Of a DNA stretch of 64,000 nucleotides, positions 5,149 to 64,000 are shown in pieces (within the stretch, counting starts at the first letter, position 1; every line of letters starts with the position of its first letter). Both the position numbers and the translations under genes were made by a program. The stretch lies in the NCBI RefSeq assembly GCF_024223415.1, contig NZ_CP100500.1. One strand, written 5' to 3'. The notes below the pieces were generated by a model. That model worked only from the letters and a program-made list of their open reading frames with translations. It did not search any database and was not told the DNA's origin. Origin of the DNA: Escherichia coli. Lineage in GTDB: Bacteria; Pseudomonadota; Gammaproteobacteria; Enterobacterales; Enterobacteriaceae.

Positions 5149-5825
5149 AGTGGCTGGAGCGCTCCGTTTTGCAATTGCCACGCTTGCTGGCAGTAGTTCA
5201 GGAAAGGTGTGCGATGACGTTCAAAAAGAATAATCAGCGAACCACGTTCAAACGCCCAGTGTTGTAAGCGCTGCAACAGCATTTCGCTGGCCTGCGGCGT
5301 CAGGCGGCTAAAGGCTTCATCAAGAATTAATAGCTTTGGCTGCATCGCGATGGCGCAGGCGATGACCACGCGCTGTGTCTCTCCACCGGAGAGTGTTGCC
5401 GGGTGACGATGGCGCAACGGCTGGCACTCGGTCAGAGTCAGGGCGGCATCAATCCGAGCCATAATCTCTGCTTCAGCAAGACACAGATTTTCTGGCCCAA
5501 AGGCAACTTCTTCTTCCACGCTAAAGGTACAGCCGGAGAGCTGCAAATAGGGCGATTGCTGGACGAGCTGGATGGTGGCGGATTGTTCATTAAGCGGGAG
5601 ATGCCCAATGGGCGTACCGAGGAGCGTCCCCGTGCCTGTTATCTCTCCTGGCAGAAAGTCCGGATACCAGCCCGCCATCAGCTGTGCCAGCGTACTTTTG
5701 CCACTGCCGTTGTCACCAAAGATGGCGACCATCCCCGGTTTGACATAGTGAAAGTCATAACAGAACGGAGGATGTGTTGAGTGTGTCGGGCAATAACGGA
5801 ACTGTTCTAACGTAACCATATCCAC
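5142..5825 (-). CDS. ECF/ABC transporter ATPase, first subunit
   Basis: Walker A GDNGSGKST, canonical signature LSGGETQR, Walker B LLILDEA. Confidence 0.75.
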   Translation of the reverse strand: MDMVTLEQFRYCPTHSTHPPFCYDFHYVKPGMVAIFGDNGSGKSTLAQLMAGWYPDFLPGEITGTGTLLGTPIGHLPLNEQSATIQLVQQSPYLQLSGCTFSVEEEVAFGPENLCLAEAEIMARIDAALTLTECQPLRHRHPATLSGGETQRVVIACAIAMQPKLLILDEAFSRLTPQASEMLLQRLQHWAFERGSLIILFERHRTPFLNYCQQAWQLQNGALQPLC

Positions 5826-6514
5826 GCTCCGAATTCTGTCAGCATCAGCAAGATCATGGTGTAACGCGCTACGCGTTGTAGGGTGCTATCGGCTGGTGCC
5901 CACAACGTTGTTCGTCGATTGTGGATCCGAAATGCCCGCATATCCAGCGCCGCACCACGGACAGCAAGATCGTTTAGCGCATTGTGTGTTAGCGGAATAA
6001 TTAACGCGGGCATCGCACGTAAACGCTGATACCAGCCCTCATCCAGCGGCACGCCGCGGGCACGCTGCGCTTCATGAATAATCGCTAATTGCCGTTTTAA
6101 CTGCTCAACGACCAATAACGGCCCGGCAAACAGATAAGCGACGCCTGGCGGCAGGCGAGAAGCAAACAGAGCGCGGATAAAACATTGCACGGGGACGTAC
6201 TGCATCCACAACTGTGAGGTTGAAACAATCGCCAGAATCCGCAACCAGAGCGTAATAGCATGCGTCCAACGCTCCGGCGAACGCGGCGTGCCGCTTAGCC
6301 ATTCTGTTAGCCAGCCACCGTGTACCAGCCACAGCCCGGCTCCCAGCGAGAACATCAGCCAGACGACATATTTTGCCCGCCGCCGCGTGGCCTTTAGCGC
6401 AATAAGGCAGAAAAAGGTCGCCGCGCTATAGATCGGCAAAATGGTCTGCGCGGGCAGGATAAGCGTGGTGCAGGCCGCCAATGCCCACAGTGTTAATGAG
6501 GTAAATGGATGCAT
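5807..6514 (-). CDS. ECF transporter transmembrane T component (CbiQ/EcfT-like)
   Basis: Hydrophobic 235-aa protein with Ala-Arg-Gly motif (EAQRARGVP); start ATG directly abuts stop of upstream S gene (TAAATG). Confidence 0.65.
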   Translation of the reverse strand: MHPFTSLTLWALAACTTLILPAQTILPIYSAATFFCLIALKATRRRAKYVVWLMFSLGAGLWLVHGGWLTEWLSGTPRSPERWTHAITLWLRILAIVSTSQLWMQYVPVQCFIRALFASRLPPGVAYLFAGPLLVVEQLKRQLAIIHEAQRARGVPLDEGWYQRLRAMPALIIPLTHNALNDLAVRGAALDMRAFRIHNRRTTLWAPADSTLQRVARYTMILLMLTEFGAWIWLR

Positions 6515-7093
6515 TTAGCGCACGGCAGCCATTGCCGGAAAATGGCGCGTGGTGCGAATCGGCAGCTGGCGCAGTAAAAGCCAGACAATCACCGCTGTAA
6601 GAGTTTTATCGACCAGGTTCGCGCCTATCACCGTAATCGCCACCGACTCCACCAGGTTTTGCCCCATCGAGTGCATCCAGGCAACGAACAAATCGGCTCC
6701 GCTACCGGTGACACCGCCGAACAGCGCAGTACGCAGCGGTACAGCGACGACCGTTACCGCAAGCGTAATAATCACGCCGCTGACAACGACTTTTGGCAGG
6801 GTGCGGAACCAACCCGCTCGCGCCAGCCAACCGGCGACCAGGCCGATGACCATCGCCACGGGCGCAAATGCGGCGGCGATCGGGTCGGTCAGCAATCCCC
6901 AGAGTAAATTGGTCAGTAAACCGGTCAGCATCCCGATCACCGGACCAAGCAGTACCGCGCTAATAAGTGTGCCGATGGAGTCGAGAAATATAGGTAATTT
7001 GACCATGCTGGCCAGTTGCCCGCCGATCATATTGATGGCGATAGATATAACGATTAACACCAGCGCCTGACTGGAAAAGTGGCTACGCGCCAT
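6515..7093 (-). CDS. small integral membrane protein, candidate ECF substrate-specific S component
   Basis: About 192 aa of mostly hydrophobic helices; preferred start ATG 7093 with GAGAGG Shine-Dalgarno upstream (track ORF extends to 7192); position immediately upstream of T and A genes. Confidence 0.55.
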   Translation of the reverse strand: MARSHFSSQALVLIVISIAINMIGGQLASMVKLPIFLDSIGTLISAVLLGPVIGMLTGLLTNLLWGLLTDPIAAAFAPVAMVIGLVAGWLARAGWFRTLPKVVVSGVIITLAVTVVAVPLRTALFGGVTGSGADLFVAWMHSMGQNLVESVAITVIGANLVDKTLTAVIVWLLLRQLPIRTTRHFPAMAAVR

Positions 7094-7115
7094 AAGAAAA
7101 CCTCTCTGAAAGTAG

Positions 7116-7547
7116 TTATTTAACGGGGGAAATATGCAACTCGTCGTAACCAGAAAGCGCGCAAGGTTGGCGGCTAAACGCCAGTTCCTCAAGGCTACCG
7201 ATCACCAGTTCAAGCGTGGTCCGCACGGTACAGCCGGGCATCATATGACCGCCAAGCATCGTGCCGTGTGGATCGGAAACGCAGAGATGAAGATGCTCAC
7301 CACTCTGTTCCAACGTGCCGTTTAGTGAGATCACTTCGAATGTACCGTTCAGGAGCGTGGTGCCTTCTTGCCCGGCATAGCGCAAGGCGATGTCAGTCAG
7401 GCTACCGGTACAGCCTGCAATCCAGGCGGCATGAAGTTGCTGCTGCTGTGCAAAAGCGTGTAGCTGGGAAAAAACTTCCTGCCCGGGGAGGAGGCGCAGT
7501 GCGTAAAAGCGTGCGGAGGAAGAATATGGGTAGGGCAATGTCATCAT
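7116..7547 (-). CDS. small soluble protein, possibly DUF296/PPC-domain family
   Basis: 143-aa ORF, first gene of the minus-strand operon; family assignment from memory of sequence character only. Confidence 0.45.
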   Translation of the reverse strand: MMTLPYPYSSSARFYALRLLPGQEVFSQLHAFAQQQQLHAAWIAGCTGSLTDIALRYAGQEGTTLLNGTFEVISLNGTLEQSGEHLHLCVSDPHGTMLGGHMMPGCTVRTTLELVIGSLEELAFSRQPCALSGYDELHISPVK

Positions 7548-10340: not shown

Positions 10341-10365
10341 GGCCCGACGATACAGGACAAGAGAC

Positions 10366-12720: not shown

Positions 12721-13764
12721 TTAACGCATTGTTTCATCAAGTATATTGGCAACTTTTTGCATGACTTCCCCGGCATTATCCACGCCTTCAGTTTTTTGCT
12801 GTTCTACCCACTGCGTTTGCTCTTGCTGATAACCAATCGCTTTCTGCCAGGCGTCCAGCTCTGATTTTTTCAAATAGCGAACCTGTGCACCTTCCTGCTC
12901 AAGCGTTTTTACCATGCTGATCAGGTTGTTATCTAATGCCTTGCCCAGCGCTTTCTCGGTTGTAATGGCCGCTCGTTGAATAGCCTCACGATCTCTGTTA
13001 TCAAGGTTTTCCCACGTTTGTTTATTCATTACCAACAGATAAACATGACCAAGCCAGAGCGAAGGGGAGAGCAACACATTCGGCGCAGCACGTTCAGCAT
13101 GGATGTCATATCCGCTATCAAGATTGACCATTAAGCCATCGAGTTGTCCGTCGCGGAGTGCTGTCGTAATTTGCTCATTCCACGGTAAGGTTACGGTTTT
13201 TGCCCCCGTATGAGTTAAATAAGCCCGGTGCCAGAAACTGGCTGTTCGCCAGGTGGTTCCCTGAAGTGCAGTCAATTTATCAATGGGCCTGGTAGAGAAA
13301 AAGCCTACCGGGTAGCCAAGGAAAAACTGTAAATTCACGATATTGTTACGCTCAAGTTCAGCGTTAAACTCGGGAATTTCCGCATATACGCGACGAAAGA
13401 ATTCTACCTGACTGGCTCCATGATCCGGGCCAATAGCAAAGCTCTTGAAGATTTGATGAAGCGGTAATTGTTTCGCTGTGTATTCCGGTACCACTATACC
13501 CATATCAGCTTTGCTACCATCACTTATTGTCGTCAGAGCGTCATAGCTGATGGCGGTTTCACCGTTCCAGTGTGGTTCGATTTTCAAACGCCCCTGCGAC
13601 TCTTTTTCAATTTCTGCAAAAAATATCTCTTTAATTATTTGTGTACGCATTCCCCCGTAGGGTTCATGGTCTGTATAACGAAGAATTTTTTCAGCGGCAA
13701 CGTTGTGGGAAGATATCAGAAGTAATCCTGATACCAGAGAAAGTAAAAAGTGTTTGAATGTCAT
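12721..13764 (-). CDS. secreted DctP-like (TRAP-type) solute-binding protein, orphan
   Basis: Signal-peptide-like N-terminus MTFKHFLLSLVSGLLLISSHNVAA when started at ATG 13764 (track ORF starts 13806); FFAEIEKESQGRLKIEPHWNG resembles the conserved N-terminal region of DctP-family binding proteins as I recall it; no permease genes adjacent. Confidence 0.55.
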   Translation of the reverse strand: MTFKHFLLSLVSGLLLISSHNVAAEKILRYTDHEPYGGMRTQIIKEIFFAEIEKESQGRLKIEPHWNGETAISYDALTTISDGSKADMGIVVPEYTAKQLPLHQIFKSFAIGPDHGASQVEFFRRVYAEIPEFNAELERNNIVNLQFFLGYPVGFFSTRPIDKLTALQGTTWRTASFWHRAYLTHTGAKTVTLPWNEQITTALRDGQLDGLMVNLDSGYDIHAERAAPNVLLSPSLWLGHVYLLVMNKQTWENLDNRDREAIQRAAITTEKALGKALDNNLISMVKTLEQEGAQVRYLKKSELDAWQKAIGYQQEQTQWVEQQKTEGVDNAGEVMQKVANILDETMR

Positions 13765-13818
13765 CTCAGTTCCATCTGTAATTTTATTGGTCGTCATTAA
13801 TATCAAAAACCGTGAACT

Positions 13819-40397: not shown

Positions 40398-40927
40398 TGA
40401 ACTGCACCCCAAATGTTGGACATAATCTGACATCTGAAGGTGCAGTTTATGAAACATTCATTTGAAGTAAAACTTGCCGCTGTAAATCATTACCTGGCCG
40501 GTCATGCAGGCATCATTTCTACGGCAAAACTCTTTCAACTTTCTCACACCAGCCTCTCACACTGGATTAATCTTTTTCTTCTTCACGGTCCTCAGGCACT
40601 GGATTGCAGACACAAGCGTAGCTATTCTCCTGAAGATAAACTTTGCGTGGTTCTTTATGCTCTCGGGCATTCTGAGTCTCTACCCCGGGTAGCTGCCCGG
40701 TTTAACATTCCCAGCCACAACATGGTTAAAAACTGGATAAAAGGCTACCGCAAATCTGGTAATGAGGCCTTTATCAGGCGCAGGAAGGAGAAAAGCATGA
40801 CCCGTTCTGATGATACCCATGAAAACGAGGCAAACATGACGCCGGAAGAGATGAAGAATGAGCTGCGTTATCTTCGCGCAGAAAATGCATATCTGAAAGC
40901 CATGCAGGAGCATCTCCTGGAAAAAAA

Positions 40928-41829
<902 letters not shown>

Positions 41830-41870
41830 GCCAGCGTCGCATCAGGCGATAAATGCCTGATGCGACACAG
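41830..41870. repeat. right half of the REP palindromic unit split by the IS
   Basis: gccagcgtcgcatcaggcgataaatgcctgatgcgac. Confidence 0.7.
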
Positions 41871-47795: not shown

Positions 47796-47885
47796 CGTCA
47801 TCTTCTCTATAAAAAAGAGCGTGGATTGGGTACAATCCCGCTCTTATCACCGCATTTTGACTAGCTCAATAAAAGAAATCAGACC

Positions 47886-48993: not shown

Positions 48994-50511
48994 ATGTCTG
49001 AACAACACGCACAGGGCGCTGACGCGGTAGTCGATCTTAACAATGAACTGAAAACGCGTCGTGAGAAGCTGGCGAACCTGCGCGAGCAGGGGATTGCCTT
49101 CCCGAACGATTTCCGTCGCGATCATACCTCTGACCAATTGCACGCAGAATTCGACGGTAAAGAGAACGAAGAACTGGAAGCGCTGAACATCGAAGTCGCC
49201 GTTGCTGGCCGCATGATGACCCGTCGTATTATGGGTAAAGCGTCTTTCGTTACCCTGCAGGACGTTGGCGGTCGCATTCAGCTGTACGTTGCCCGTGACG
49301 ATCTGCCGGAAGGCGTTTACAACGAGCAGTTCAAAAAATGGGACCTCGGCGACATCCTCGGCGCGAAAGGTAAACTGTTCAAAACCAAAACCGGCGAACT
49401 GTCTATCCACTGTACCGAGCTGCGTCTGCTGACCAAAGCACTGCGTCCGCTGCCTGATAAATTCCACGGCTTGCAGGATCAGGAAGCGCGCTATCGTCAG
49501 CGTTATTTGGATCTCATCTCTAACGATGAATCCCGTAACACCTTTAAAGTGCGCTCGCAGATCCTCTCTGGTATTCGCCAGTTCATGGTGAACCGCGGCT
49601 TTATGGAAGTTGAAACGCCGATGATGCAGGTGATCCCAGGCGGTGCCGCTGCGCGTCCGTTTATCACCCACCATAACGCGCTGGATCTCGACATGTACCT
49701 GCGTATCGCGCCGGAACTGTACCTCAAGCGTCTGGTGGTCGGTGGCTTCGAGCGTGTATTCGAAATCAACCGTAACTTCCGTAACGAAGGTATCTCCGTA
49801 CGTCATAACCCAGAGTTCACCATGATGGAACTCTACATGGCTTACGCAGATTACAAAGATCTGATCGAGCTGACCGAATCGCTGTTCCGTACTCTGGCAC
49901 AGGATATTCTCGGTAAGACGGAAGTGACCTACGGCGACGTGACGCTGGACTTCGGTAAACCGTTCGAAAAACTGACCATGCGAGAAGCGATCAAGAAATA
50001 TCGCCCGGAAACCGACATGGCGGATCTGGATAACTTCGACTCTGCGAAAGCGATTGCTGAATCTATCGGTATCCACGTTGAGAAGAGCTGGGGTCTGGGC
50101 CGTATCGTTACCGAGATCTTCGAAGAAGTGGCAGAAGCACATCTGATTCAGCCGACCTTCATTACTGAATATCCGGCAGAAGTTTCTCCGCTGGCGCGTC
50201 GTAACGACATTAACCCGGAAATCACAGACCGCTTTGAGTTCTTCATTGGTGGTCGTGAAATCGGTAACGGCTTTAGCGAGCTGAATGACGCGGAAGATCA
50301 GGCGCAGCGCTTCCTGGATCAGGTTGCCGCGAAAGATGCAGGTGACGACGAAGCGATGTTCTACGATGAAGATTACGTTACCGCACTGGAACATGGCTTA
50401 CCGCCGACAGCAGGTCTAGGGATTGGCATCGACCGTATGGTAATGCTGTTCACCAACAGCCATACCATCCGCGACGTTATTCTGTTCCCGGCGATGCGTC
50501 CGGTGAAATAA
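48994..50511 (+). CDS. lysS: lysyl-tRNA synthetase
   Basis: 505 aa, [20 protein letters not shown]. Confidence 0.95.
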
Positions 50512-50531
50512 GCATTACGTTATGCTCACAA

Positions 50532-50556
50532 CCCCGGCAAATGTCGGGGTTTTTTA
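50532..50556 (+). terminator. lysS rho-independent terminator; T tract overlaps the idi stop codon
   Basis: ccccg-gcaaatgt-cgggg hairpin plus T6. Confidence 0.7.
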
Positions 50557-51102
50557 TTTAAGCTGGGTAAATGCAGATAATCGTATTCTGGCTTCGCGAT
50601 TTGTCGCCTGCATCACCATCCACGGACTGAACGCCCACGGCGTGGCATCAATACCGCGTAATACATCAGCTAAATCACACCATTGATAATCCATCACTTC
50701 ATCATCGTTGATCTGTAACGCACTGGTGGTGCGTGCGGCAAATACCGGACACACTTCATGTTCCACAATGCCATTCGGATCGGTGGCGCGATAGCGAAAG
50801 TCAGGATAGATAGATTCAGGAGGCGTAATTTCCACGCCAAGCTCATAACGGCAACGGCGGATCACCGCGTCTTCGTTGCTTTCTCCTAGTTGTGGGTGCC
50901 CACAAACCGAGTTAGTCCACACGCCAGGCCATGCTTTTTTGCTCAGAGCGCGACGGGTAACTAATAATTGTCCTTTGGCATTAAACAGCCAACTGGAGAA
51001 CGCGAGATGTAAGCGGGTGTCTGCCGTGTGTGCGGCATACTTTTCCAGCGTACCCGTGGGAACTCCCTGTGCATTCAATAAAATGACGTGTTCCGTTTGC
51101 AT
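50554..51102 (-). CDS. idi: isopentenyl-diphosphate delta-isomerase (Nudix)
   Basis: 182 aa; synteny. Confidence 0.9.
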
Positions 51103-51351
51103 AATTTCTCACATGTAATTCTGATCACTCATCATTATAGATAATTGAAGAGTGAAATGATTAACCAAGTGAGCGTTTATCGACAACCGCCCGTTTTGAG
51201 CGGATGTCGACAGGTAAAAACCATTTAAAAAAGTAGCATCATATATTTGAAGCGACTTTCAATGGCCATTGCAACACAGTCAGAAATGACAGGAATAGAG
51301 AGAGTAAAAAGCAACAACAGACTGAATATAGCGCGCATTAAAAGATTCATA

Positions 51352-52800
51352 TTATTCTCCATGCTCATTTTTCTTCAGCTTGCGCATCAGAAGCCACATA
51401 CGTACTGTCCTGACTTTTAAATCTTTATCAGAGACGGATTCCTTCACCAGGTCAGCATGATGCTGATAGCCATTAAAGAAGACGTTCAGCACAACGGCGC
51501 TAAGGGTTGCGAGCATAATGCCGCTATGTAGCAGCGGTTGCAGTACGGCCGGTAACTTAGAAAAGAAATCGTGAGAGAGCGTCGGAGTCATGCCAACGCC
51601 GAGACTGATCGCCACAATATAGAGGTTGTAACGGTTGGTGGTGTAGTTACAGCGCGACAGAATTCGAATCCCTGTCGCCAGTACCATGCCGAACATCACC
51701 AGCCCAGCGCCGCCCAGCACAAATTGCGGAATGGAGGCTACCAGCACCGCCATTTTTGGCACCATGCCAAACAGTATTAATATAATTCCCGAAGAAATAC
51801 ACACCCAGCGGCTATGAACGCGCGTCACGCTAACCAGGCCAACGTTTTGAGAAAATGACGTGTGGGGGAAGCTGTTAAACGTGCCACCAATCATTGTCCC
51901 TACGCCATCGACACGCAGCCCGCGAATAATATCGTGCGAAGAGAGTTTACGACCGACTATTTCACCCAGTGCCAGGAACATCCCCATCGACTCGATAAAC
52001 ACGATGATTAACACGGCAGTCATGGTCAGAATGGAAACGGGATCGAAAATCGGCATACCAAACGACATCGGCGTAACAATCGCAAACCACGAGGCATCAT
52101 GTAGCCCGGATAAATTGACTTCATTCATCATCCACGAAAGTAAAAAGCCAAATACAATCCCCAGTAATACGGCGACGTTGGACATAAATCCTTTCGCATA
52201 GCGAGTAATGAGCAAGATAAAAATTAAGACGGCAAAGGAGATACCTAAATAAACGGGATTACCATATTGCGGATTCCCTTTACCTCCGGCGGCCCAGTCA
52301 ATACCCACCTGAATGATGCTAAGCCCGATAGAAGTAATAACCACACCGGTAACCAGTGGCGGGAATAAAGGCATCAAGCGACCGATAAGTGGCGCTAATA
52401 ATGTGGTGATAAAACCCGCGGCGATAGTGGCACCAAATATACCCAGCAGGTCGATATCCGGGTTCATCCCAATGGCTATCATTGGTGTTACAGCAGCAAA
52501 GGTCACCGACATAATCACCGGCAGGCGGATCCCCATAAAGCGGCCGATACCTATACATTGCAATAATGTGACGATCCCGCAGCAAAAGAGATCCGAGCTA
52601 ATGAGCATCGCAATAGCTTCTTTTGAGAGGCCCAGTCGGTCACCAATCATAAGAGGAACAGCGACTGCACCTGCGTACATGACAAGGACGTGTTGCAGAC
52701 CGAGTATGATCAGCTTTCCTGGTGATAATATGCGGTCAACCTCATCAGTTGGGCGGTCTTGCCCAGAAGATGAGGGAAGTTGGGAATCTATGGCGCTCAT
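51352..52800 (-). CDS. uacT: uric acid:H+ symporter, NCS2 family
   Basis: Start MSAIDSQLPSSSGQ, 482 aa, polytopic membrane protein. Confidence 0.85.
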   Translation of the reverse strand: MSAIDSQLPSSSGQDRPTDEVDRILSPGKLIILGLQHVLVMYAGAVAVPLMIGDRLGLSKEAIAMLISSDLFCCGIVTLLQCIGIGRFMGIRLPVIMSVTFAAVTPMIAIGMNPDIDLLGIFGATIAAGFITTLLAPLIGRLMPLFPPLVTGVVITSIGLSIIQVGIDWAAGGKGNPQYGNPVYLGISFAVLIFILLITRYAKGFMSNVAVLLGIVFGFLLSWMMNEVNLSGLHDASWFAIVTPMSFGMPIFDPVSILTMTAVLIIVFIESMGMFLALGEIVGRKLSSHDIIRGLRVDGVGTMIGGTFNSFPHTSFSQNVGLVSVTRVHSRWVCISSGIILILFGMVPKMAVLVASIPQFVLGGAGLVMFGMVLATGIRILSRCNYTTNRYNLYIVAISLGVGMTPTLSHDFFSKLPAVLQPLLHSGIMLATLSAVVLNVFFNGYQHHADLVKESVSDKDLKVRTVRMWLLMRKLKKNEHGE

Positions 52801-53235
52801 CAGTGTTTCTCCTTTCGCCCGCCAGAGTAAAAAGCAACCGTTTACGTTAATGAAACTGTCTAAACACATGCTCGTGGAGTGCCAGTTTTTGCGAGGAAGG
52901 GGAGTTAGAGACAGGAATTGCGGAGGCAATCACATAATCGTGCTTAAACCACGAAAATGACAAGAGAACCTGACAATGGAATTATCTGTAATTTTCTCAT
53001 ATTGATATTTCATTAATCATTCTGGCATGTCGCACTCTCGCATTTAATCGTTTTTATCTGGATAGCGCTCTTTTGATCGGCAATGTTGAAATAATGAAAG
53101 CGGCATAGATTGAGGGGCAATAATTTGAACTCAGTAGCAAAATTATAATTAAAACGGTCATGCTACCTAATATATGCCCGTTTATTGCATCGCGAAATTT
53201 GAGAAGACATAACTCATTAAATGAAAGGGATGCAA

Positions 53236-55155
53236 ATGAATAAGTTTATCGCTGCTGAAGCTGCGGAATGTATAGGCTGTCATGCTTGTGAAATTGCCTG
53301 TGCGGTGGCACACAATCAAGAAAACTGGCCGCTGAGTCACAGTGACTTTCGACCGCGTATCCACGTTGTAGGGAAAGGCCAGGCTGCGAATCCGGTGGCC
53401 TGCCATCACTGCAACAATGCCCCTTGCGTTACGGCTTGTCCGGTTAATGCTCTGACTTTCCAGTCCGATAGCGTACAACTGGACGAGCAAAAATGTATTG
53501 GTTGTAAAAGATGCGCAATCGCTTGCCCCTTTGGCGTCGTTGAGATGGTCGATACGATTGCGCAGAAATGCGACCTTTGTAACCAGCGCAGTTCCGGCAC
53601 GCAAGCCTGTATTGAAGTCTGCCCAACACAGGCGTTACGGCTGATGGACGATAAAGGGTTACAGCAGATAAAGGTGGCCCGCCAGCGCAAAACGGCAGCA
53701 GGAAAAGCGTCATCAGACGCTCAGCCATCTCGCAGTGCAGCGTTGCTCCCCGTTAACTCGCGTAAAGGCGCAGATAAAATTTCAGCGAGTGAACGGAAAA
53801 CCCACTTTGGCGAAATCTATTGCGGGCTGGATCCACTGCAAGCGACTTATGAGAGTGACCGCTGTGTTTATTGTGCCGAAAAAGCTAACTGCAACTGGCA
53901 TTGCCCGCTGCATAACGCTATTCCGGATTACATCCGTCTGGTACAGGAAGGAAATATTATTGAAGCGGCAGAACTTTGCCACCAGACCAGTTCCTTACCA
54001 GAAATCTGCGGCAGGGTATGCCCACAGGACCGTCTTTGTGAAGGCGCATGTACTTTGAAAGATCACTCTGGCGCAGTCACTATCGGTAATCTGGAACGCT
54101 ACATCACCGATACCGCGCTGGCGATGGGCTGGCGTCCCGATGTCAGCAAAGTTGTTCCCCGTAGCGAAAAAGTGGCGGTGATTGGGGCTGGGCCAGCAGG
54201 GTTAGGGTGTGCTGATATTCTGGCGCGCGCAGGAGTTCAGGTTGATGTCTTTGATCGCCATCCAGAAATTGGCGGTATGCTGACTTTTGGCATACCTCCT
54301 TTCAAACTCGATAAAACGGTATTAAGCCAGCGGCGAGAGATATTCACCGCAATGGGAATCGACTTTCATCTTAACTGTGAAATTGGCCGCGATATTACCT
54401 TTAGCGATTTAACTTCTGAATATGATGCAGTTTTCATCGGCGTGGGGACTTACGGGATGATGCGAGCTGATCTGCCGCATGAAGATGCGCCCGGTGTCAT
54501 TCAGGCTCTACCGTTCTTGACTGCCCATACCCGCCAGCTCATGGGGTTGCCGGAGTCTGAAGAGTATCCGCTGACGGACGTGGAAGGTAAGCGAGTCGTG
54601 GTATTGGGCGGTGGCGATACGACAATGGATTGTTTGCGGACTTCCATCCGCCTCAATGCCGCCAGCGTGACCTGCGCGTATCGTCGTGATGAAGTCAGTA
54701 TGCCGGGCTCGCGCAAAGAGGTGGTCAATGCGCGCGAGGAAGGTGTCGAGTTTCAATTCAATGTTCAGCCGCAATATATCGCTTGTGACGAAGATGGGCG
54801 TTTAACTGCGGTGGGCCTGATTCGTACCGCCATGGGTGAGCCGGGGCCGGATGGTCGCCGTCGTCCTCGTCCGGTTGCGGGTTCAGAGTTTGAATTGCCC
54901 GCCGATGTTCTCATTATGGCCTTTGGTTTCCAGGCGCATGCCATGCCGTGGTTGCAGGGCAGCGGAATTAAACTCGATAAATGGGGCCTGATTCAAACCG
55001 GCGACGTTGGGTATTTACCTACCCAGACGCATCTGAAAAAAGTCTTTGCTGGTGGGGATGCAGTTCATGGCGCGGATCTGGTTGTCACTGCCATGGCCGC
55101 AGGAAGGCAGGCGGCGCGCGATATGTTAACTCTGTTTGATACGAAGGCATCGTGA
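53236..55155 (+). CDS. ygfT: Fe-S/FAD oxidoreductase (glutamate synthase small-subunit-like)
   Basis: N-terminal 4Fe-4S cysteine clusters plus C-terminal dinucleotide-binding GAGPAG; start MNKFIAAEA. Confidence 0.85.
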
Positions 55156-55643
55156 TGAAATCGTTAATTATCGTTAATCCGGCTGACTGTATTGGCTGCC
55201 GTACTTGTGAAGTGGCCTGTGTGGTCGCTCACCCTTCAGAACAGGAGTTGAATGCCGATATCTTTTTACCCCGGCTGAAGGTACAGCGACTGGACTGCAT
55301 CAGTGCGCCGGTGATGTGCCACCAATGTGAAAACGCCCCTTGTGTTGGCGCTTGCCCCGTGGGGGCGCTGACGATGGGCGAGCAGGTGGTGCAGACCAAT
55401 TCTGCCCGTTGTATTGGCTGTCAGAGTTGCGTCAGTGCGTGCCCGTTTGGAATGATCACCATTCAGTCGTTGCCGGGGGATACCCGGCAACAAATCGTGA
55501 AATGCGATCTCTGTGAACAGCGGGAAGAGGGGCCTGCCTGCGTTGAATCTTGCCCAACACAGGCGCTGCAGTTGCTTACTGAAAGAGAACTCAGGCGAGT
55601 CCGCCAGCAGCGTATTGTTGCCAGCGGTGAGAATCCTCTGTGA
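55152..55643 (+). CDS. ygfS: 4Fe-4S ferredoxin-type subunit
   Basis: 163 aa with multiple CxxCxxCxxxCP motifs; overlaps ygfT stop. Confidence 0.85.
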
Positions 55644-55678
55644 AAGAAATCTCCGCGCTGAAAGGCGCGGAGAATCTA

Positions 55679-57046
55679 TTAGATTGCCCAACCACCTGCG
55701 TAAAATGCGACCAGTGCGGCAGTAATGATCACCGTACCAATATTCAGCTTTTGCCATTCGCGTGCAAAGACGCGGCCTACGACCAGTGTCACAAAGCCCA
55801 GCATAATACCGGTAACGATATTACAAGTCAGAACGATGAACACGGCACACACCAGGCCAGCCATAGCGTCAATAAAATCATTGAAATCCAGCTTCGAGAC
55901 GTTACTTAACATCAGCAAACCTACGTACATCAGGGCGGGTGCAGTGGCGTAACCAGGGATCAAAAATGACAGCGGTGATAAGAACAGAATCAGCAGGAAT
56001 AACGCCCCCACTACGGTTGCGGTTAACCCTGTTTTACCCCCGGCGGCGGTTCCTGCCGCTGATTCGATATAAACCGCTGCGGGCGCTGCGCCCACCAGGC
56101 CGGAGAATATTGAACTTACTGAGTCACTGGTCAGGGCTTTGCCGCCGTTGATGATCTGGTTGTCTTTATCCAACAAATTCGCCTGACCGGCGACGGCACG
56201 GATGGTGCCAGTAGCGTCGAACACTGCGGTCATCACCAATGCCAGTACACTCGGAAGTACAGTTGGCTGGAGTGCGCCCATAATATCGAGGCTGAAAATC
56301 AGAGACTTACCATCTTCGCCAGTCAGGCTTGGCATCGCCACCAGACCGTGGTATTTCACCGCTGGGTCAAAGATTAAGCCGATGATCGAAATTGCAATAA
56401 TCACCAACAAGATCCCGCCGGGTACGCGACACTTCTCCAGACCGAAGATGACCGCCAGCCCCAGCAAGCTCATCATCACCGGGAAGGAGGTAAACGCACC
56501 GAGCGCCACTGGCAAGCCTTCAATCGGGTTTTTGATAACCATTCCCACACCGTTAGCAGCAATCAGCAGCAGAAACAGCCCGATACCGATACCTGTACCG
56601 TGAGCGATCCCCATCGGTAAATTACGTAAGATCCAGGTACGCACACCGGTTACGGAAATGGCGGTGAAGATGACGCCCATCAGAAATACCGCGCCCAGTG
56701 CGACAGGAACGCTAATTTGTTGCCCGAGTACCAGACTGAATGCGGTAAACGCCGTCAAGGAAATCGCGCAACCAATCGCCATTGGCAAATTGGCCCATAA
56801 TCCCATCAGCAACGAGCCGAAGCCCGCGACCAGACAGGTGGCAACAAACACAGCTGCGGGAGGAAAACCTGCTTTGCCCAGCATTCCCGGAACGACGATA
56901 ACGGAATAAACCATGGCCAGAAAGGTCGTTAAGCCAGCCAGTACTTCCTGACGAACGGTACTGCCACGAGCGGTAATTTTAAAATAATTATCCAGCGCGC
57001 CCTGTGGCTTTGGTGCGTCCGGTGTTTGTAGGATGTCTCCAGACAT
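55679..57046 (-). CDS. ghxQ: guanine/hypoxanthine permease
   Basis: 455 aa, polytopic membrane protein; synteny. Confidence 0.85.
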
Positions 57047-57081
57047 AATGATGTCCTCACGAGGATGTAAAAGTTTTATTA

Positions 57082-58401
57082 TTAGTTGCGTTCGTACACC
57101 AGACGACCATCAACGTAGGTGCGGTAGATCGAACGGTCATCGCCCAACGTCATCATCACGAACAATTTGTCGACTAAAGAAACAGAGTTGTCATAGCGCA
57201 GCTGCTGTAGCGGAGTGGCGGTGGGTTCCATCACCACGAAATCAGCCTCTTTGCCAGGTAAAAAGTTGCCAATCAAATCGTCAAGGCCCAGAGATTTCGC
57301 TCCGCCGAGCGTGGCCAGGTAAAACGCTTCATATGCCGAGAGGCGATAGCCTTGTAATTGCAACACTTTGTAGGCTTCGTTCAGCGTTTGCAGCATGTTG
57401 AAAGTGGTTCCGGCACCGATATCCGTTCCCATGCCCACTTTGACTTTCTTCTGCCATGCTTTTTTCAAGTTGAATAAGCCGCTGCCGAGGTAAAGGTTGG
57501 AGGTCGGACAGAAAGCAATGCTGGATTTGGTTTCGCTGAGACGATCCCACTCTTTTTCTTCGAGATGGACGCAGTGAGCAAAGACACAGTTTTTACCGGT
57601 CAGGCCGTACTGATGGTAAACATCCAGATAACCATCATGGTCAGGATAAAGCGATTTCACCCAGGCAATTTCATCTTTGTTTTCACAGAGATGGGTATGT
57701 ACCCACGTATCTGGATATTCCTCTTTCAGGCGTTGCGCCATCGCCATCTGTTCAGGAGATGAGGTAGGGGCGAATCGTGGCGTAATCGCATACAACAGAC
57801 GACCATTTTTGTGCCAGCGTTCGATCAGTTCTTTGCTTTGGTGATAGCTGCTTTCGGCAGTGTCGAGCAGATAATCCGGTGCGTTGCGGTCCATCATCAC
57901 CTTACCGGCAATCATACGCATATTGATATGACTGGCGGCTTCAAACAGCGCATCAACAGATTGCGGATGAACAGTGCCAAACACCAGCGCCGTGGTGGTT
58001 CCGTTACGTAAAAGCTGCTTGATGAAGAACGCCGACATTTCGCGGGCGTACTCTAAATCCTCATAACGACGTTCAGTAGGGAAGGTGTGTTTATTCAACC
58101 ACTCCAGCAATTGCTCACCATAGGCCCCCACCATTTCACTTTGCGGATAATGGATATGTGTATCGACAAAGCCCGGTACTATCAGTTTGCCGCGATAGTC
58201 GCGCACGCGAATGGTGTCAGGAATTTGATGCCTTCCGTCTTCCCATTCGCCAAACCATTCCACTTTTCCCTGTTTAATGAGTAATAAACCATCCTCAATA
58301 AACCGCAGCGCAGAGGCAATCTCTTCCGGGTTATCGACCGTACGGGTGACATCAATAAAACTGCCTCGTACCGCTTTTAACGTGTGTTCTCCTGACATCA
58401 T
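57082..58401 (-). CDS. guaD: guanine deaminase
   Basis: Start [15 protein letters not shown], 439 aa, amidohydrolase HxH motif. Confidence 0.9.
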
Positions 58402-58415
58402 TGACTCCTTTACTG

Positions 58416-59816
58416 TTAATCCATCTCTTCCGCTGAGGTAATACCAGGCAGAACGTTTTCCTGTCGGTAGCCACCAGGGAGGATAATATTTAATAAAATC
58501 GCAGTTAACCCGCCAGCACAAATAGGGTTTTCAACTAATACATAAATAGAGGCTGGCAATATTTTAAAAATTTCGGGATCGTAGGAGACGCCAAGCCCTA
58601 AACCTAAAGAAGTGGCGACAATAAGTGTTTCACGCCGCTTTAATCCGTTGGTGATGATGATGCGAATCCCAGCGATGGCAATCATGGAAAACATCAACGT
58701 CATTGCGCCTCCCAGAACTGCCGAGGGAATGGTCGTGAAGAAGCCGCCAATCATCGGAAATAAGCCGAGGATAACCAGCATTACCGCGATGGTTCGCCCG
58801 ACATAACGTGAAGCGACGCCAGTCATCTGAATAACCCCATTATTTTGCGCAAACGTGGTTAATGGTAATGAACCAACAGCGGAGGCGATAACAGAAACCA
58901 GACCATCTGCCAGCACGCCGCCTTTCAGTCGGGACTGATACTCTTCCCCCTGAATGGGGCGGCGGGAAACCATTGCCGTGGCGGTGATATCGCCGACTGC
59001 TTCCAGCACGCTAAGCAGATAAATCGTGCCAACCACCAGGAACTGATGGAAGCTAAAACTAAAGCCGTATTTGAACGGATGCGGGATGGTGATTAACGGC
59101 AGATTGCGCATACTGCTGAAATCCACCATGCCCAGGCATAACGATGCGATATAGCCGACACATAGCCCAATGGCGATCCCTCCCATGCGTAGCAACGGAC
59201 TGCGACAGCAGTTAAATCCGATCACCACAATTAAAACCAATAAACCAACGCCGAGATGTTCGTAATTGCCGAACGTACCGCTGCTTTTGGCTGCAAATCC
59301 TCCACCAAAATCGATAATGCCGACTTTAATCAGGCTTAAGCCGATCATCAGTACCACAATACCGCTGACGGTAGGCGTAATAACCCGACGTAAATAGGGC
59401 AAGATAAATGAAGATCCGACAACCAGAAATGCGCCAACGAAGGAGACGCCGAGAAGCGACGACATGATTAACTCTTCGTGAAAACCGTCGCTTTTCATGC
59501 TGCTGCCCAGCGCAATCATGACCGTAACAAATGAAAAATTGACTGACTGAATTGAGAGTAGGCCAGAACCGACGATGCCGTAGCGGTTTACTTGTAACCA
59601 GGTACCAATACCAGAGGCGATCATCGCCATAGAAACAAGATAGGCGGTTGTTTCAGCGGAAAGCTGTAAGGCCGCACCCACGATTAACGCGGGGGTTACC
59701 ATCGGAACGAAAATTGCCAACAGATGGGTAATGGCACCAACGAGAGCCTGATGAAAGGGAGGGCGATCCTCCAGTTCAAATATAAGGTCAGAACCTGCAT
59801 GGTTTATATCAGACAT
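58416..59816 (-). CDS. xanQ: xanthine permease, NCS2 family
   Basis: Start MSDINHAGSDLIFELEDRPPFHQ, 466 aa. Confidence 0.9.
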   Translation of the reverse strand: MSDINHAGSDLIFELEDRPPFHQALVGAITHLLAIFVPMVTPALIVGAALQLSAETTAYLVSMAMIASGIGTWLQVNRYGIVGSGLLSIQSVNFSFVTVMIALGSSMKSDGFHEELIMSSLLGVSFVGAFLVVGSSFILPYLRRVITPTVSGIVVLMIGLSLIKVGIIDFGGGFAAKSSGTFGNYEHLGVGLLVLIVVIGFNCCRSPLLRMGGIAIGLCVGYIASLCLGMVDFSSMRNLPLITIPHPFKYGFSFSFHQFLVVGTIYLLSVLEAVGDITATAMVSRRPIQGEEYQSRLKGGVLADGLVSVIASAVGSLPLTTFAQNNGVIQMTGVASRYVGRTIAVMLVILGLFPMIGGFFTTIPSAVLGGAMTLMFSMIAIAGIRIIITNGLKRRETLIVATSLGLGLGVSYDPEIFKILPASIYVLVENPICAGGLTAILLNIILPGGYRQENVLPGITSAEEMD

Positions 59817-59980
59817 CCCTTCACTCCTTTTAAAGTAAATTTGATCATCTGAATTAGTAAAATAAATTCCCACGAATTTGGGGCGCAGGACGCCTTGAGA
59901 ACGGCTTATCTCATTTTCGCAGTCACTATTTAGTCATCGTTCAAACAGAGAAACAGGCCGCCGAAGCGGCCATTTATTAC

Positions 59981-62851
59981 TTATATTTTTTCCAGCGCGG
60001 TGAGTATTTTCTCCGGTGTGAAATGCCATTCGCGTAACCAGATGCCGCAGGCATCGTGAATTGCGGTAGCAATCGCCGGAGCTGCGCCATTTACACCAAT
60101 TTCCGAGATCGATTTCGCCCCGAACGGGCCGACTTTATCGTCGCTCGGCACCAACACAGCGCGGAAATCACGCGGAATGTCACCAATTTTCGGTGCGCCG
60201 TAACTGCGTAAATCACGCGTTAACGGGTGACCTTCGGCGTCATAAATGATCTCTTCGCTCATACTGTGGCCGATAGCACGCAGGGTGGCACCGTAGATTT
60301 GTCCCAACGCTAACTCTGGATTGACCGGTGTACCGCAGTCCAGCAGGGCGTAGAATTTATCCAGGCGGATTTCACCCGTACGCGTGTTGACGGCAACTTC
60401 AGCGAAGTTTGCGCCATACGGGAAAGCGAAATCAGGCGTGATATAACTGCCAGTTCCCACCAGTGAACCAAAGCCGGTGCCGGTTTCGCCTTTATGGGCA
60501 ATATCCCCGAAACTAACTTCGCCTTTCTTGCCGCGCACGACGCCCGGCGTTGCTAGTTGAACATCTGCCACTGGCTCACCCAACATTTGCGCGCCGTGGA
60601 ACAGAATTTTCTCCCGCAGATTTTCCGCTGCCAAACGCGCCGCGTTACCCGAGAAGCAAGTACCGGACGAGGCATATGCGCCTTTATCAAACAACGCATG
60701 ATCGGTATCACCGGAGATAACATGCACGTCCTGCGGTGGGCAGTGCAGCACTTCTGCTGCCAGTTTCGTCACTACAGTATCCAGACCAGTACCAATATCC
60801 GCACCGCCAGAATGAACGATAAAGGTGCCGTCCGATTCCAGTTTGATCATGCAGTTAGCCTGATCGATATCCGGGATACCCGATTTCTGCATGATAATGG
60901 CGACGCCGCGACCGATGTGCCAGTCACCATTTTGCGGTTTCGGTGAAGACCATTGGATCATCTCGCGACCCTGGCGCAGGATCTCTTCCAGTGCGCAGCT
61001 GGCGGCGGAAGGAACGGAGGTTGGCGCTTTACCTTCACCAATTGCACCGAGAATTTTCAGCTCTTGCCCTTCGTGTACCCGGTTACGTTCGATAATTTCC
61101 AGTTGGTCGATCTGTAACTGTTCAGCAAGTTCCGCTAATGCCATGGTGATAGCGAAGTTACCTTTCGGTGCTCCATAACCCTGATAAGCACCATTTGGGC
61201 AAATGTTGCTGTAGTAGGTGGTGACCTGGAAATCGACGTTATCGCACGGATATAAGGGCAGCGACAGCGCCGGTCCGTTACACGGTACGGTGAGTGAGTG
61301 GTTGCCGTAAGGGCCAGTGTTGGCGCGGAAATCCATCTTCACTGCCGTCAGGCGACCATCTTTTTTCGCTCCCAGTTTGACGGTGACTTTCGCGACGTGA
61401 CGAGAGGTGTTAGCAATAAACTCTTCTTCACGGGTGTAGCGGAACAGTACCGGACGCCCGGTCACGCAGGTTGCCCATGCGCACACTTCTTCCAGCAGGA
61501 TGTCCTGTTTGGAACCAAAACCGCCGCCAACTCGCTCTTTAATGACATGAACTTTATGCTGTTTCATGCCCACGAGGCGCGCGACCTGGCGGCGTAAGTG
61601 CCATGGTACCTGGGTGGAGGCGTGGATAACCAGACGATCGCCATCCATGCGGGTAAAGCAGATATGTGTTTCAGTCGGGCACTGCTGCGCCTGCGTTGAG
61701 TTATAGGTTCGCTCAATGATCACATCGGCATCGGCAAAGCCTTTGTCCATATCGCCAATATGACCATGAATACTGGCGGCGATATTTTTGCGGGGGCGAG
61801 AACCGATCGGGAAGTTAATGATCATATGCTCGCCGCGCTGGGCTGCATGGCTGTTATCGTCTTCCAGAGTATCTGGCGCACCAGCAACATACACCACCGG
61901 TTCATCGTGCACGACAGGCGCATCTTCCGCCATTGCTTCGTCGATCGACATTACCGGCTTAAGCACTTCATATTCAACGTCGATAAGCTTCAGTGCTTCG
62001 AGCGCAATTTCTTCACTTTCTGCGACCACCGCAGCAACACGATCGCCGACGTGACGCATTTTCTTGCCGAACATACGGCGGTCAAGCGGTGACGGTTCCG
62101 GTGCGCTCTGCCCCCCCGGGGTATAGTAGATATCCGGGCAATTCAGATGAGTAATAACGTGAACGACGCCCGGTAAGGCTTCAGCTTTGCTGACATCCAG
62201 ATGAGTAATCAGTGCGTGAGCGTGTGGGCTACGTAACATTTTAATGACGCAGGCGTCAGCCGTTACGCGGTCTTCAACATAGCAGGGTTTCGCCTGCACC
62301 ATTTTCGCGGCATCAGTTTTAGGATAATGCTTGCCAATGACTTCAAGGTCGTCACGGAAAGTCGGAGCGATATCAATGGTGGCCTGCGGATTATTTTTAC
62401 GTGCAACCGCCAGTTCAATGACCTGATAGTATTGCTGCCAGCCAGCATCGCGGCTGAACAAACCAGAAAGCGCGTCGTCGATCTCTTCGCGGGTAGGTGC
62501 GGCGATACGATCGAGAAGATCGGTGATAATCAGAGCCGCAGCTGGATCGTTATAACCAGACTGCACCACGCCAACATCAACCATTGCCTGTTGAACCAGA
62601 CTTAACTCGTTCCATTTGCCCAGAGATTCTGCGGTACGAATATCTGCCTTCTCTAACTGTGCGGCAATAAGCAAGGACGCGTTAACGATATTACCGTTAA
62701 AGATTATTGCGTCAGAACCGGCAAACCCGAAGCCATCATCACTGTTGCGTACAGAGTGCATTCCCATGTTAAACAACAGCTTTTGCACGTTTTCGCCTGG
62801 ATTAACGGTTAGCTCCTGAGGCGCGCCATTTAAAGTAAAGTGGATGATCAT
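59981..62851 (-). CDS. xdhD: molybdopterin-dependent xanthine-dehydrogenase-family oxidoreductase (fused 2Fe-2S and Mo-binding domains)
   Basis: 956 aa; synteny. Confidence 0.9.
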   Translation of the reverse strand: MIIHFTLNGAPQELTVNPGENVQKLLFNMGMHSVRNSDDGFGFAGSDAIIFNGNIVNASLLIAAQLEKADIRTAESLGKWNELSLVQQAMVDVGVVQSGYNDPAAALIITDLLDRIAAPTREEIDDALSGLFSRDAGWQQYYQVIELAVARKNNPQATIDIAPTFRDDLEVIGKHYPKTDAAKMVQAKPCYVEDRVTADACVIKMLRSPHAHALITHLDVSKAEALPGVVHVITHLNCPDIYYTPGGQSAPEPSPLDRRMFGKKMRHVGDRVAAVVAESEEIALEALKLIDVEYEVLKPVMSIDEAMAEDAPVVHDEPVVYVAGAPDTLEDDNSHAAQRGEHMIINFPIGSRPRKNIAASIHGHIGDMDKGFADADVIIERTYNSTQAQQCPTETHICFTRMDGDRLVIHASTQVPWHLRRQVARLVGMKQHKVHVIKERVGGGFGSKQDILLEEVCAWATCVTGRPVLFRYTREEEFIANTSRHVAKVTVKLGAKKDGRLTAVKMDFRANTGPYGNHSLTVPCNGPALSLPLYPCDNVDFQVTTYYSNICPNGAYQGYGAPKGNFAITMALAELAEQLQIDQLEIIERNRVHEGQELKILGAIGEGKAPTSVPSAASCALEEILRQGREMIQWSSPKPQNGDWHIGRGVAIIMQKSGIPDIDQANCMIKLESDGTFIVHSGGADIGTGLDTVVTKLAAEVLHCPPQDVHVISGDTDHALFDKGAYASSGTCFSGNAARLAAENLREKILFHGAQMLGEPVADVQLATPGVVRGKKGEVSFGDIAHKGETGTGFGSLVGTGSYITPDFAFPYGANFAEVAVNTRTGEIRLDKFYALLDCGTPVNPELALGQIYGATLRAIGHSMSEEIIYDAEGHPLTRDLRSYGAPKIGDIPRDFRAVLVPSDDKVGPFGAKSISEIGVNGAAPAIATAIHDACGIWLREWHFTPEKILTALEKI

Positions 62852-63627
62852 ACGGCTTCCTCCCCAGCCTGTTGGCAGTCGGCATACAGGTCGGCTACCA
62901 GAACTCCCGTGATATAGCGTTTATAGGCCACGCTGCCCCGCAAATCTTCCTGCGGGAAAATGGCGTTGGCGACAGCCTGTTCAAGTGCATTGCCTTCCAG
63001 ATTTTGTTTTTCGACATCGTGCAGACGCAGTGCTTTACTGGCGACGCCATCCAGCGCAATTCGCATACCGTCGTGGTCTGTCATTGCAACGGCTGCCGTC
63101 ACGACGGTTAAACCTGCCTGAGAACGGCTAATTTTCCGGGTCGCACAGGTGCGATACGGATCTTTAATGATAATTTCGGTTAGCAGGCGATCGCATGGGC
63201 AGGCCAGGTAGTCCTCGATTGACAGCGTTTCGCCGTTGCCAAAAACCAGTTCAGCATCCAGTGCCAGCAGGACGGGAAGCAGCACCGACTCTTCCTGGCG
63301 GGCGGCGATTTCACCACCAATGGTCGACTGATTACGAACATGGCGTGAGTAAACAAAACCGAGGGCTTCACGCAGTGCTGCAGGAATAAATCGCGCATCA
63401 CGCAGTGGCTGCAAGCGAGACATTGCACCAATCCGCAGAGCACCGTTATCCCAGTCAACCCAGTCTAGTTCCAGATCCTGTAAGGAAATGGCAATCTTTT
63501 TATCGGTACGGGTTGGTGTAGCGTTGAGTTTGCTGCCCCCGGCGAACCAGACGGCTTCATCCTGGTAGCGGCGCTTCAGTTCCAGCGCCTGTTCGACAGA
63601 GTCGGGCCTGAAAAATTGTTCAATCAT
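62848..63627 (-). CDS. ygfM: FAD-binding subunit of xanthine-dehydrogenase-like enzyme
   Basis: 259 aa; overlaps xdhD start. Confidence 0.85.
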   Translation of the reverse strand: MIEQFFRPDSVEQALELKRRYQDEAVWFAGGSKLNATPTRTDKKIAISLQDLELDWVDWDNGALRIGAMSRLQPLRDARFIPAALREALGFVYSRHVRNQSTIGGEIAARQEESVLLPVLLALDAELVFGNGETLSIEDYLACPCDRLLTEIIIKDPYRTCATRKISRSQAGLTVVTAAVAMTDHDGMRIALDGVASKALRLHDVEKQNLEGNALEQAVANAIFPQEDLRGSVAYKRYITGVLVADLYADCQQAGEEAV

Positions 63628-63677
63628 CTTCTTTCCTTATTTAACCCTCTTCCCTGCGGGAAGAGGGCATCTGTCAT

Positions 63678-64000
63678 TTATGCCAGCGCATCCATCCGAC
63701 GCCACATACTGGCAGCGGCTTTTCTGGCTTGTGCATAAATGGAATCGCAATCGAAGTTAAACTGACGGTCTTCATAGACCATCACACCATTGACCATCAC
63801 GCTGTGAACGCTGCCTGAGCCCATACCGAAAGCGATATGCCCGGCGATATTGTCTGCCAGCAGCGGCGTCGGCGAGTTGTAATCGCAAATGGTTAAATCA
63901 GCTTTGTAACCGGCTTCCAGAAGCCCAAATTTCGCGCCAAAGTTGCGGCTCATCAGTTCGTTACCGTTAGTCAGGGCTTTGGCAAAACTGTCAGGCCACA
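63678..64000 (-). CDS. ssnA: putative aminohydrolase (chlorohydrolase family), C-terminal part; 5' end beyond window
   Basis: Open minus-strand frame running to the window edge; synteny. Confidence 0.75.
   Translation of the reverse strand, partial: WPDSFAKALTNGNELMSRNFGAKFGLLEAGYKADLTICDYNSPTPLLADNIAGHIAFGMGSGSVHSVMVNGVMVYEDRQFNFDCDSIYAQARKAAASMWRRMDALA

Follow-up and report, generated by a model that had tools for sequence, protein, structure and literature searches.

Positions 51352 to 64000 of the window, by which we mean the whole 64-kb stretch of Escherichia coli DNA that was analyzed, very probably represent the uacT-to-ssnA end of a conserved locus for purine uptake, purine interconversion, and the anaerobic breakdown of uric acid, with every complete gene open. 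A list of open reading frames (ORFs) and a genome search identified this stretch as the chromosomal region uacT, ygfT-ygfS, ghxQ-guaD-xanQ, and xdhD-ygfM-ssnA, and its nine genes stand in identical order in the annotations of both E. coli NCTC9112 and E. coli K-12 MG1655. An earlier sequence-only reading had proposed these gene identities and a K-12-like order. Both proved to be correct by the two annotations and by gene-by-gene alignment, and the start coordinate given in that reading, 51352, coincides exactly with the final base of the stop codon of uacT. The region is a known conserved E. coli locus in its standard K-12 arrangement and is nothing new in kind.

Identity and integrity of the uacT-to-ssnA region

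Gene identity, colinearity, and integrity are directly evident in this sequence when it is set beside the corresponding K-12 segment (MG1655 b2879 to b2888; NC_000913.3, 3,020,167 to 3,032,815). Window positions 50554 to 64000 and their K-12 counterpart are each 13,447 bp long and differ by 139 substitutions with no insertions or deletions (98.97% identity). Equal length without a single indel excludes an inserted gene, in agreement with the earlier proposal that no accessory genes are present here, and the intergenic stretches are also free of insertions and deletions. Gene set, order, orientation, gene lengths, overlaps, and intergenic lengths are all common to K-12 and the window. The differences are the 139 substitutions, nine amino acid differences, and the extent of ssnA, of which the window holds only the final 323 nucleotides.

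Each K-12 gene was aligned to the window, and the translations were then compared. The genes uacT, ygfT, ygfS, ghxQ, guaD, xanQ, xdhD, and ygfM aligned end to end without gaps, with identical start, stop, and length and with no internal stop codon, yielding proteins of K-12 length (UacT, 482; YgfT, 639; YgfS, 162; GhxQ, 455; GuaD, 439; XanQ, 466; XdhD, 956; and YgfM, 259 amino acids). The alignment to the K-12 region that had been suggested as a check thus revealed no frameshift or premature stop in these eight genes. Full-length frames had been claimed for all nine genes. This is the case for the eight that are complete but not for ssnA, only 106 of whose 442 codons lie within the window. In the same way, the claim that the whole cluster is preserved holds for the uacT-to-ygfM part but is an extrapolation for the remaining locus, which lies beyond the window end.

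The nine amino acid differences from K-12 in the eight complete genes are G117D in UacT; Q201L, K240N, and S282T in YgfT; V36I and S48C in YgfS; and I22V, N55D, and K57R in GuaD. The XdhD, YgfM, XanQ, and GhxQ proteins have none. In a Nei-Gojobori count over the eight genes, the proportions of differing synonymous (pS) and nonsynonymous (pN) sites were 0.040 and 0.0010, respectively, for a pN/pS of 0.026. So low a ratio is the signature that functional genes under purifying selection would leave, and it is seen in this sequence. Every ORF also scored above curated Pfam or NCBIfam thresholds. Because these thresholds were reached and because pN/pS relative to K-12 was only 0.026, the ORFs are not chance frames.

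The gene uacT (ygfU; 51352 to 52800, minus strand) encodes a urate:H+ symporter of the NAT/NCS2 family and differs from K-12 b2888 by 11 nucleotides and 1 amino acid over a gapless 1,449 nucleotides. Its product scored 414 bits against Pfam PF00860 (cutoff, 27) and 507 bits against the NCBIfam model pbuX (cutoff, 414), and together with XanQ it exceeded the cutoff of 292 for TIGR00801 (454 and 455 bits, respectively). On the opposite strand, ygfT (53236 to 55155, plus strand) encodes an iron-sulfur (Fe-S) flavoprotein of formate-dependent uric acid utilization, with 28 nucleotide and 3 amino acid differences from K-12 b2887. The NCBIfam equivalog NF009451 covered residues 1 to 639 of 639 at 1501.7 bits (cutoff, 1154), and the domains found were an N-terminal 4Fe-4S domain, Fer4_20, and Pyr_redox_2. 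The start codon of ygfS (55155 to 55643, plus strand) overlaps the ygfT stop codon by 1 nucleotide (TGATG), as in K-12. The ygfS product is a HydN-like ferredoxin with Pfam Fer4 families that aligned without gaps to that of K-12 b2886, with 2 amino acid differences. All 16 cysteines of its four CxxCxxCxxxC-type motifs are kept (residues 12, 15, 18, and 22; 55, 58, 63, and 67; 86, 89, 92, and 96; and 117, 120, 129, and 133). Disruption of an Fe-S motif by S48C was considered and ruled out; Cys48 is a 17th cysteine, outside the four canonical motifs.

Three genes on the minus strand follow. The guanine/hypoxanthine permease gene ghxQ (ygfQ; 55679 to 57046) has 12 differences from K-12 b4464, all synonymous, and its product scored 271 bits against PF00860. 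The guanine deaminase gene guaD (57082 to 58401) aligned without gaps to K-12 b2883, with 3 amino acid differences, and reached 633 bits with TIGR02967 (cutoff, 375). The GuaD length of 439 amino acids is counted from the K-12 start, whereas PGAP takes the second methionine and arrives at 438. The xanthine:H+ symporter gene xanQ (58416 to 59816) has 8 differences from K-12 b2882, again all synonymous, and its product scored 370 bits against PF00860 (cutoff, 27).

The remaining genes are also on the minus strand. The molybdenum/Fe-S subunit of uric acid reductase is encoded by xdhD (59981 to 62851), which aligned without gaps to K-12 b2881 with 33 nucleotide differences, every one of them synonymous. 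All four Pfam domains of XdhD are present (Fer2_2, the a/b hammerhead, and two molybdenum cofactor-binding domains), as is Glu606. Its partner, the subunit that binds flavin adenine dinucleotide (FAD) and is encoded by ygfM (62848 to 63627), aligned without gaps to that of K-12 b2880 and has the Pfam domains FAD_binding_5 and CO_deh_flav_C; the ygfM stop and xdhD start overlap by 4 nucleotides, as they do in K-12. XdhD scored 2123 bits with TIGR03313 (cutoff, 1102) and YgfM scored 490 bits with TIGR03312 (cutoff, 241), both of which are hypothetical-equivalog models. The partial ssnA (63678 to 64000) comprises the C-terminal 106 codons and the stop codon, and the gene continues past the window end. 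This fragment matches nucleotides 1007 to 1329 of the 1,329 nucleotides of K-12 ssnA at 100%, and it covers only positions 339 to 441 of the 441 positions of the SsnA model.

A search of 5,426 complete E. coli genomes with the 12,649-bp stretch from 51352 to 64000 gave NCTC9112 (NZ_LR134079.1, 1009451 to 1022099) and KV7 (NZ_LT795502.1) as the nearest, at 100.0% identity with 2 mismatches over the 12,649 bp. The window has T rather than C at 52451, the base that accounts for UacT Gly117Asp, and T rather than G at 61172, a private synonymous GGC-to-GGA change at Gly560 of xdhD. These are the only differences from NCTC9112 in the region. Over the whole 64-kb window, identity to NCTC9112 was 99.97%, with 16 substitutions and 2 single-base indels.

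An intact locus is the norm in E. coli but is not universal. At least 80% of the region was found in one piece in 5,165 of the 5,426 complete genomes (ca. 95%). That the strain keeps the standard purine and uric acid genes, as do ca. 95% of complete E. coli genomes, has little significance beyond bookkeeping. Several other lineages have clear lesions. In the ygfT-ygfS segment of O157:H7 strain Z1830 (locus positions 3285 to 7005, corresponding to window positions 53236 to 55643), an IS1203-family (IS3-like) insertion splits ygfT and ygfS has the nonsense mutation E29*; therefore, the formate-linked branch is inactivated in that strain, with the remaining cluster open. Strain MS6198 has a frameshift in uacT, in O145 strain RM12275 both xanQ and ygfK are frameshifted, and Z226-6 is missing everything beginning with ygfT, with an adjoining IS1.

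Beyond the window end, the locus runs on for ca. 25 kb with ygfK, mocA, yqeB/C, yqeA, hyuA, ygeY/X/W, ygeV, and xdhABC. The annotation of NCTC9112, which is a different genome from that of the window, lists ssnA, ygfK, mocA, yqeC, and yqeB as present and unflagged. The products of the neighboring genes yqeB, yqeC, and ygfK, all outside the window, carry selenium-related names in RefSeq. Selenocysteine UGA codons and selenocysteine insertion sequence (SECIS) elements in adjacent genes had been suggested as a further check. No gene from 51352 to 64000 has an in-frame UGA that would need read-through, and an Rfam scan of positions 50000 to 64000 with permissive filters (E ≤ 1) found no SECIS element. 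It returned two sub-threshold hits to unrelated families (one an archaeal snoRNA, the other an Enterococcus sRNA), which were rejected. The selenium link of yqeB, yqeC, and ygfK reportedly (Haft and Self 2008) concerns not selenocysteine but a labile selenium cofactor found in molybdenum hydroxylases.

Three points weigh against regarding the locus as fully functional. Open reading frames alone are no proof of function. Only 24% of ssnA is present, and the remainder of the pathway and its activator are encoded outside the window, so that completeness of the pathway beyond this stretch is an extrapolation. Furthermore, G117D affects a UacT residue that is invariant among the orthologs compared, and thus uacT may be impaired despite its open frame. 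A full-length frame is not equal to intact function.

A substitution at an invariant glycine of UacT

Codon 117 of uacT (52450 to 52452, minus strand) reads GAC, for aspartate, rather than the GGC, for glycine, of K-12 and NCTC9112, with the changed base at 52451. Glycine occupies this position in all 11 other E. coli loci compared and in 51 of 51 UacT orthologs down to 60% identity, from Enterobacterales, Aeromonas, Pandoraea, and Chromobacteriaceae. The residue lies within a near-invariant motif, GLxGIFGATI. The other alignment columns listed as invariant match the window UacT by construction of the invariant list. The window UacT shares 99.8% identity with the common 482-amino-acid protein of E. 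coli and fully covers the Xan_ur_permease domain. Within the UacT/YgfU urate transporter subfamily (NAT/NCS2; Papakostas and Frillingos 2012, J Biol Chem 287:15684), it is distinguished by aspartate in place of Gly117, a residue invariant in the subfamily, where transmembrane segment 4 (TM4) begins.

In an AlphaFold2 model of UacT (mean predicted local distance difference test score, 83), residue 117 is the first residue of TM4 and follows the strand-helix of TM3, which bears Thr100. Thr100 is said to be the substrate-selectivity residue of UacT, a role attributed to work by Papakostas and Frillingos in 2012. The residue aligned to position 117 is isoleucine in the paralog XanQ, and therefore the constraint on Gly117 is specific to the UacT subfamily. 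The alignment with UapA is unreliable at this position.

The frequency of the allele was evaluated in the 5,426 complete genomes with 30-base probes centered on the single-nucleotide polymorphism, in two flanking haplotypes and with Gly controls. None of these genomes contained the Asp117 30-mer of either haplotype, with about 640 genomes that have other flanking haplotypes being outside the reach of the probes. The Gly117 versions of the same probes were found in 319 and 4,419 genomes. The 30-mer for the window variant at 61172 was likewise in none of the complete genomes. Among public sequences more broadly (NCBI, ENA, Logan, and UniRef), 45 contigs, including one of 5.56 Mb, encode the exact 482-amino-acid Asp117 protein (UniRef, UPI000BE6EDA4).

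Gly117Asp probably arose at least twice, on different uacT haplotypes. Two draft assemblies with Asp117, GCA_052393245.1 and GCA_050886665.1 (codon at locus positions 10349 to 10351), have uacT DNA that is 22 and 16 synonymous bases, respectively, from that of the window. The haplotype in both drafts is closest to that of strain STEC1575, whereas that of the window is NCTC9112-like. Recombinational import is a less parsimonious explanation than independent mutation because the window uacT is one base from the NCTC9112 uacT and the nearest haplotype-distinguishing sites are at nucleotides 249 and 360 of the gene.

Gly117Asp may reduce or alter urate transport. One possibility, which we hold only tentatively, is that the cluster, although intact in structure, is degraded in function at its entry point. 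Gly117Asp would then inactivate or retune UacT, with poor urate import or altered specificity as the outcome, as a further instance of the sporadic decay that peripheral genes of this locus show in other E. coli lineages. This would be in accord with the invariance of Gly117 in the 51 orthologs, with the position of the residue at the beginning of the predicted TM4 helix, with the contrast between no complete genome with the Asp allele in either haplotype tested and 4,738 with Gly, and with the lesions of the locus in MS6198, Z1830, RM12275, and Z226-6. However, conservation of this position does not extend to the wider family, as the isoleucine of XanQ illustrates. Aspartate is a favorable residue at the N terminus of a helix, which counts against a loss of function. 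Furthermore, the Asp117 allele persists in two or more haplotypes and on 45 or more public contigs, which argues against strong deleteriousness. In short, the invariance of Gly117 argues for constraint, and persistence in multiple lineages along with the suitability of aspartate for a helix N terminus argues for tolerance.

It is conceivable, but in our judgment unlikely, that selection in some lineages for a changed or lowered uptake of urate, rather than neutral drift, accounts for the recurrence of Gly117Asp at an invariant glycine. Errors of sequencing or assembly are a highly improbable source of the two bases, among them that of Gly117Asp, at which the window departs from NCTC9112 and KV7: although the window differs so little from NCTC9112 over 64 kb and neither variant 30-mer is in the complete genomes, the Asp117 protein has been independently recorded on the 45 contigs and was verified in the two draft assemblies, and the base change is a clean transition rather than an indel in a homopolymer. 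We consider the preferred reading to be that of a conserved locus in which every complete gene is open. Should G117D change the uptake of urate, position 117 in TM4 of UacT would thereby be marked as functionally important. Uric acid degradation by gut bacteria affects host urate, and probiotics are being engineered to carry it out (PMC12507026); knowledge of natural transporter variants could be useful in that context.

Proposed role in purine and uric acid metabolism

The enzymatic roles and the regulation considered here would be those described for E. coli K-12 and Nissle. UacT, XanQ, and GhxQ are known as urate, xanthine, and guanine/hypoxanthine permeases, respectively, and GuaD is known as a guanine deaminase (RefSeq names; PMC3809563). 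Thus, three NCS2 permeases would be expected to import purines, with UacT importing urate, XanQ importing xanthine, and GhxQ importing guanine and hypoxanthine, and GuaD would convert guanine to xanthine by deamination.

Uric acid is reduced to 2,8-dioxopurine by XdhD, which copurifies with YgfM, and this product is then dearomatized and ring opened by YgfK and SsnA (PMC12507026). The XdhD and YgfM proteins encoded in the window have no amino acid differences from those of K-12, and the E. coli XdhD-YgfM enzyme is the one that was characterized. In the proposed pathway, this molybdenum/Fe-S/FAD enzyme would reduce uric acid to 2,8-dioxopurine, and the dearomatization and ring opening of that product would be carried out by YgfK, encoded outside the window, and SsnA, encoded partly inside it. 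The gene ygfT is urate induced and is required for formate-dependent urate consumption (10.1101/2022.07.24.501321, citing Iwadate and Kato 2019). A formate-linked electron route for urate use would be expected to be supplied by YgfT, with the ferredoxin YgfS as its probable partner.

The window shares XdhD-YgfM, Glu606 of XdhD, the SsnA tail, and the accessory YgfT with the reductive uric acid degradation cluster of anaerobic and gut bacteria (Li et al. 2025, PMC12507026; Liu et al., 10.1101/2022.07.24.501321), in the description of which Glu606 was highlighted. The other components of that cluster, YgfK, HyuA, YgeW, YgeY, YgeX, YqeA, and the regulator YgeV, are encoded outside the window, which ends inside ssnA.

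Control regions and regulatory sites

The divergent control region between uacT and ygfT (52801 to 53235) is 435 bp long with 39% GC. It has 3 substitutions and no indels relative to K-12 and is gapless in 11 E. coli loci. Published motifs are present in this sequence both within this region and downstream of it. The sigma-54 motif TATGCCCGTTTATTGCA (53173 to 53189, plus strand), 47 nucleotides before the ygfT ATG, exactly matches site OS32 from chromatin immunoprecipitation (ChIP) sequencing. That site was assigned to ygfT, and there is no sigma-54 site for uacT in the same list (PMC4591121). The PurR motif GGGCAAGCGATTGCGC (53513 to 53528, minus strand) lies inside the ygfT coding sequence and exactly matches the ChIP-chip motif reported for "ygfT-ygfS" (PMC3159470).

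A candidate PurR-box-like palindrome, AAGCAACCGTTTACGT (52832 to 52847), is situated 32 to 47 nucleotides 5' of the uacT ATG. It is the sole match to ACGCAAACGTTTGCGT with 3 or fewer mismatches from 50500 to 64000. A gap of ca. 90 bp separates the palindrome from the published PurR ChIP region, and the published motif, inside ygfT, is a different sequence. A sigma-54-like -24/-12 sequence 5' of uacT, TGGCACTCCACGAGCA (52869 to 52884, minus strand), is correctly oriented and invariant in 11 loci. It was rejected as a site, having two mismatches in the -12 element, and ten similar matches are inside genes of the same 13.5 kb.

The genes uacT, ygfT, xdhD, ygfM, and ssnA belong to one coexpressed YgeV iModulon (PMC10602906, PMC12133099). 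Expression in the strain would be expected to require YgeV, a sigma-54 activator whose gene lies beyond the window, with modulation by PurR.

Promoter-like sites were not in excess, with 15 found and 14.9 expected in shuffled sequence. Terminator-like sites were in slight excess (21 versus 14.5 expected from shuffled sequence), and only two intergenic hairpins, both from a consensus scan alone, were kept as descriptive features. The first is a GC-rich, terminator-like hairpin between the convergent ygfS and ghxQ (55650 to 55673), with a 9-bp stem that includes 7 GC pairs, followed by a T run. The second (59956 to 59971), GGCCGC-loop-GCGGCC, is immediately 3' of the xdhD stop codon.

Other features of the window

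Two small genes, yqfH (23 amino acids, plus strand) and yqfG (41 amino acids, minus strand), are located between idi and uacT (51157 to 51350). They overlap by 4 nucleotides and are both open, and YqfG has the difference F3L from K-12.

Two features coincide with the single-base indels relative to NCTC9112. A gene for a tripartite ATP-independent periplasmic (TRAP) transporter substrate-binding protein (12721 to 13806, minus strand) is one continuous ORF of 361 codons in the window and is frameshifted according to the NCTC9112 annotation, with the single-base indel at window position 13652. This gene and a neighbor encoding 309 amino acids, between mscS and argO, look like accessory content not found in K-12. 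The other indel is a one-base deletion at 47810, in the recJ-prfB intergenic region.

An IS3-family element, designated IS1397 in the NCTC9112 annotation, lies between trhA and ygfZ (ca. 40398 to 41831). It is absent from this site in the draft assemblies GCA_052393245.1 and GCA_050886665.1, in which the two genes are ca. 195 bp apart. In the fumE-epd interval (ca. 3786 to 7547), the annotation of NCTC9112 indicates a nucleoside/nucleotide kinase family protein, two ATP-binding cassette (ABC) ATPases, the T and S components of an energy-coupling factor (ECF) transporter, and a PPC-domain DNA-binding protein. This block may be accessory relative to K-12.

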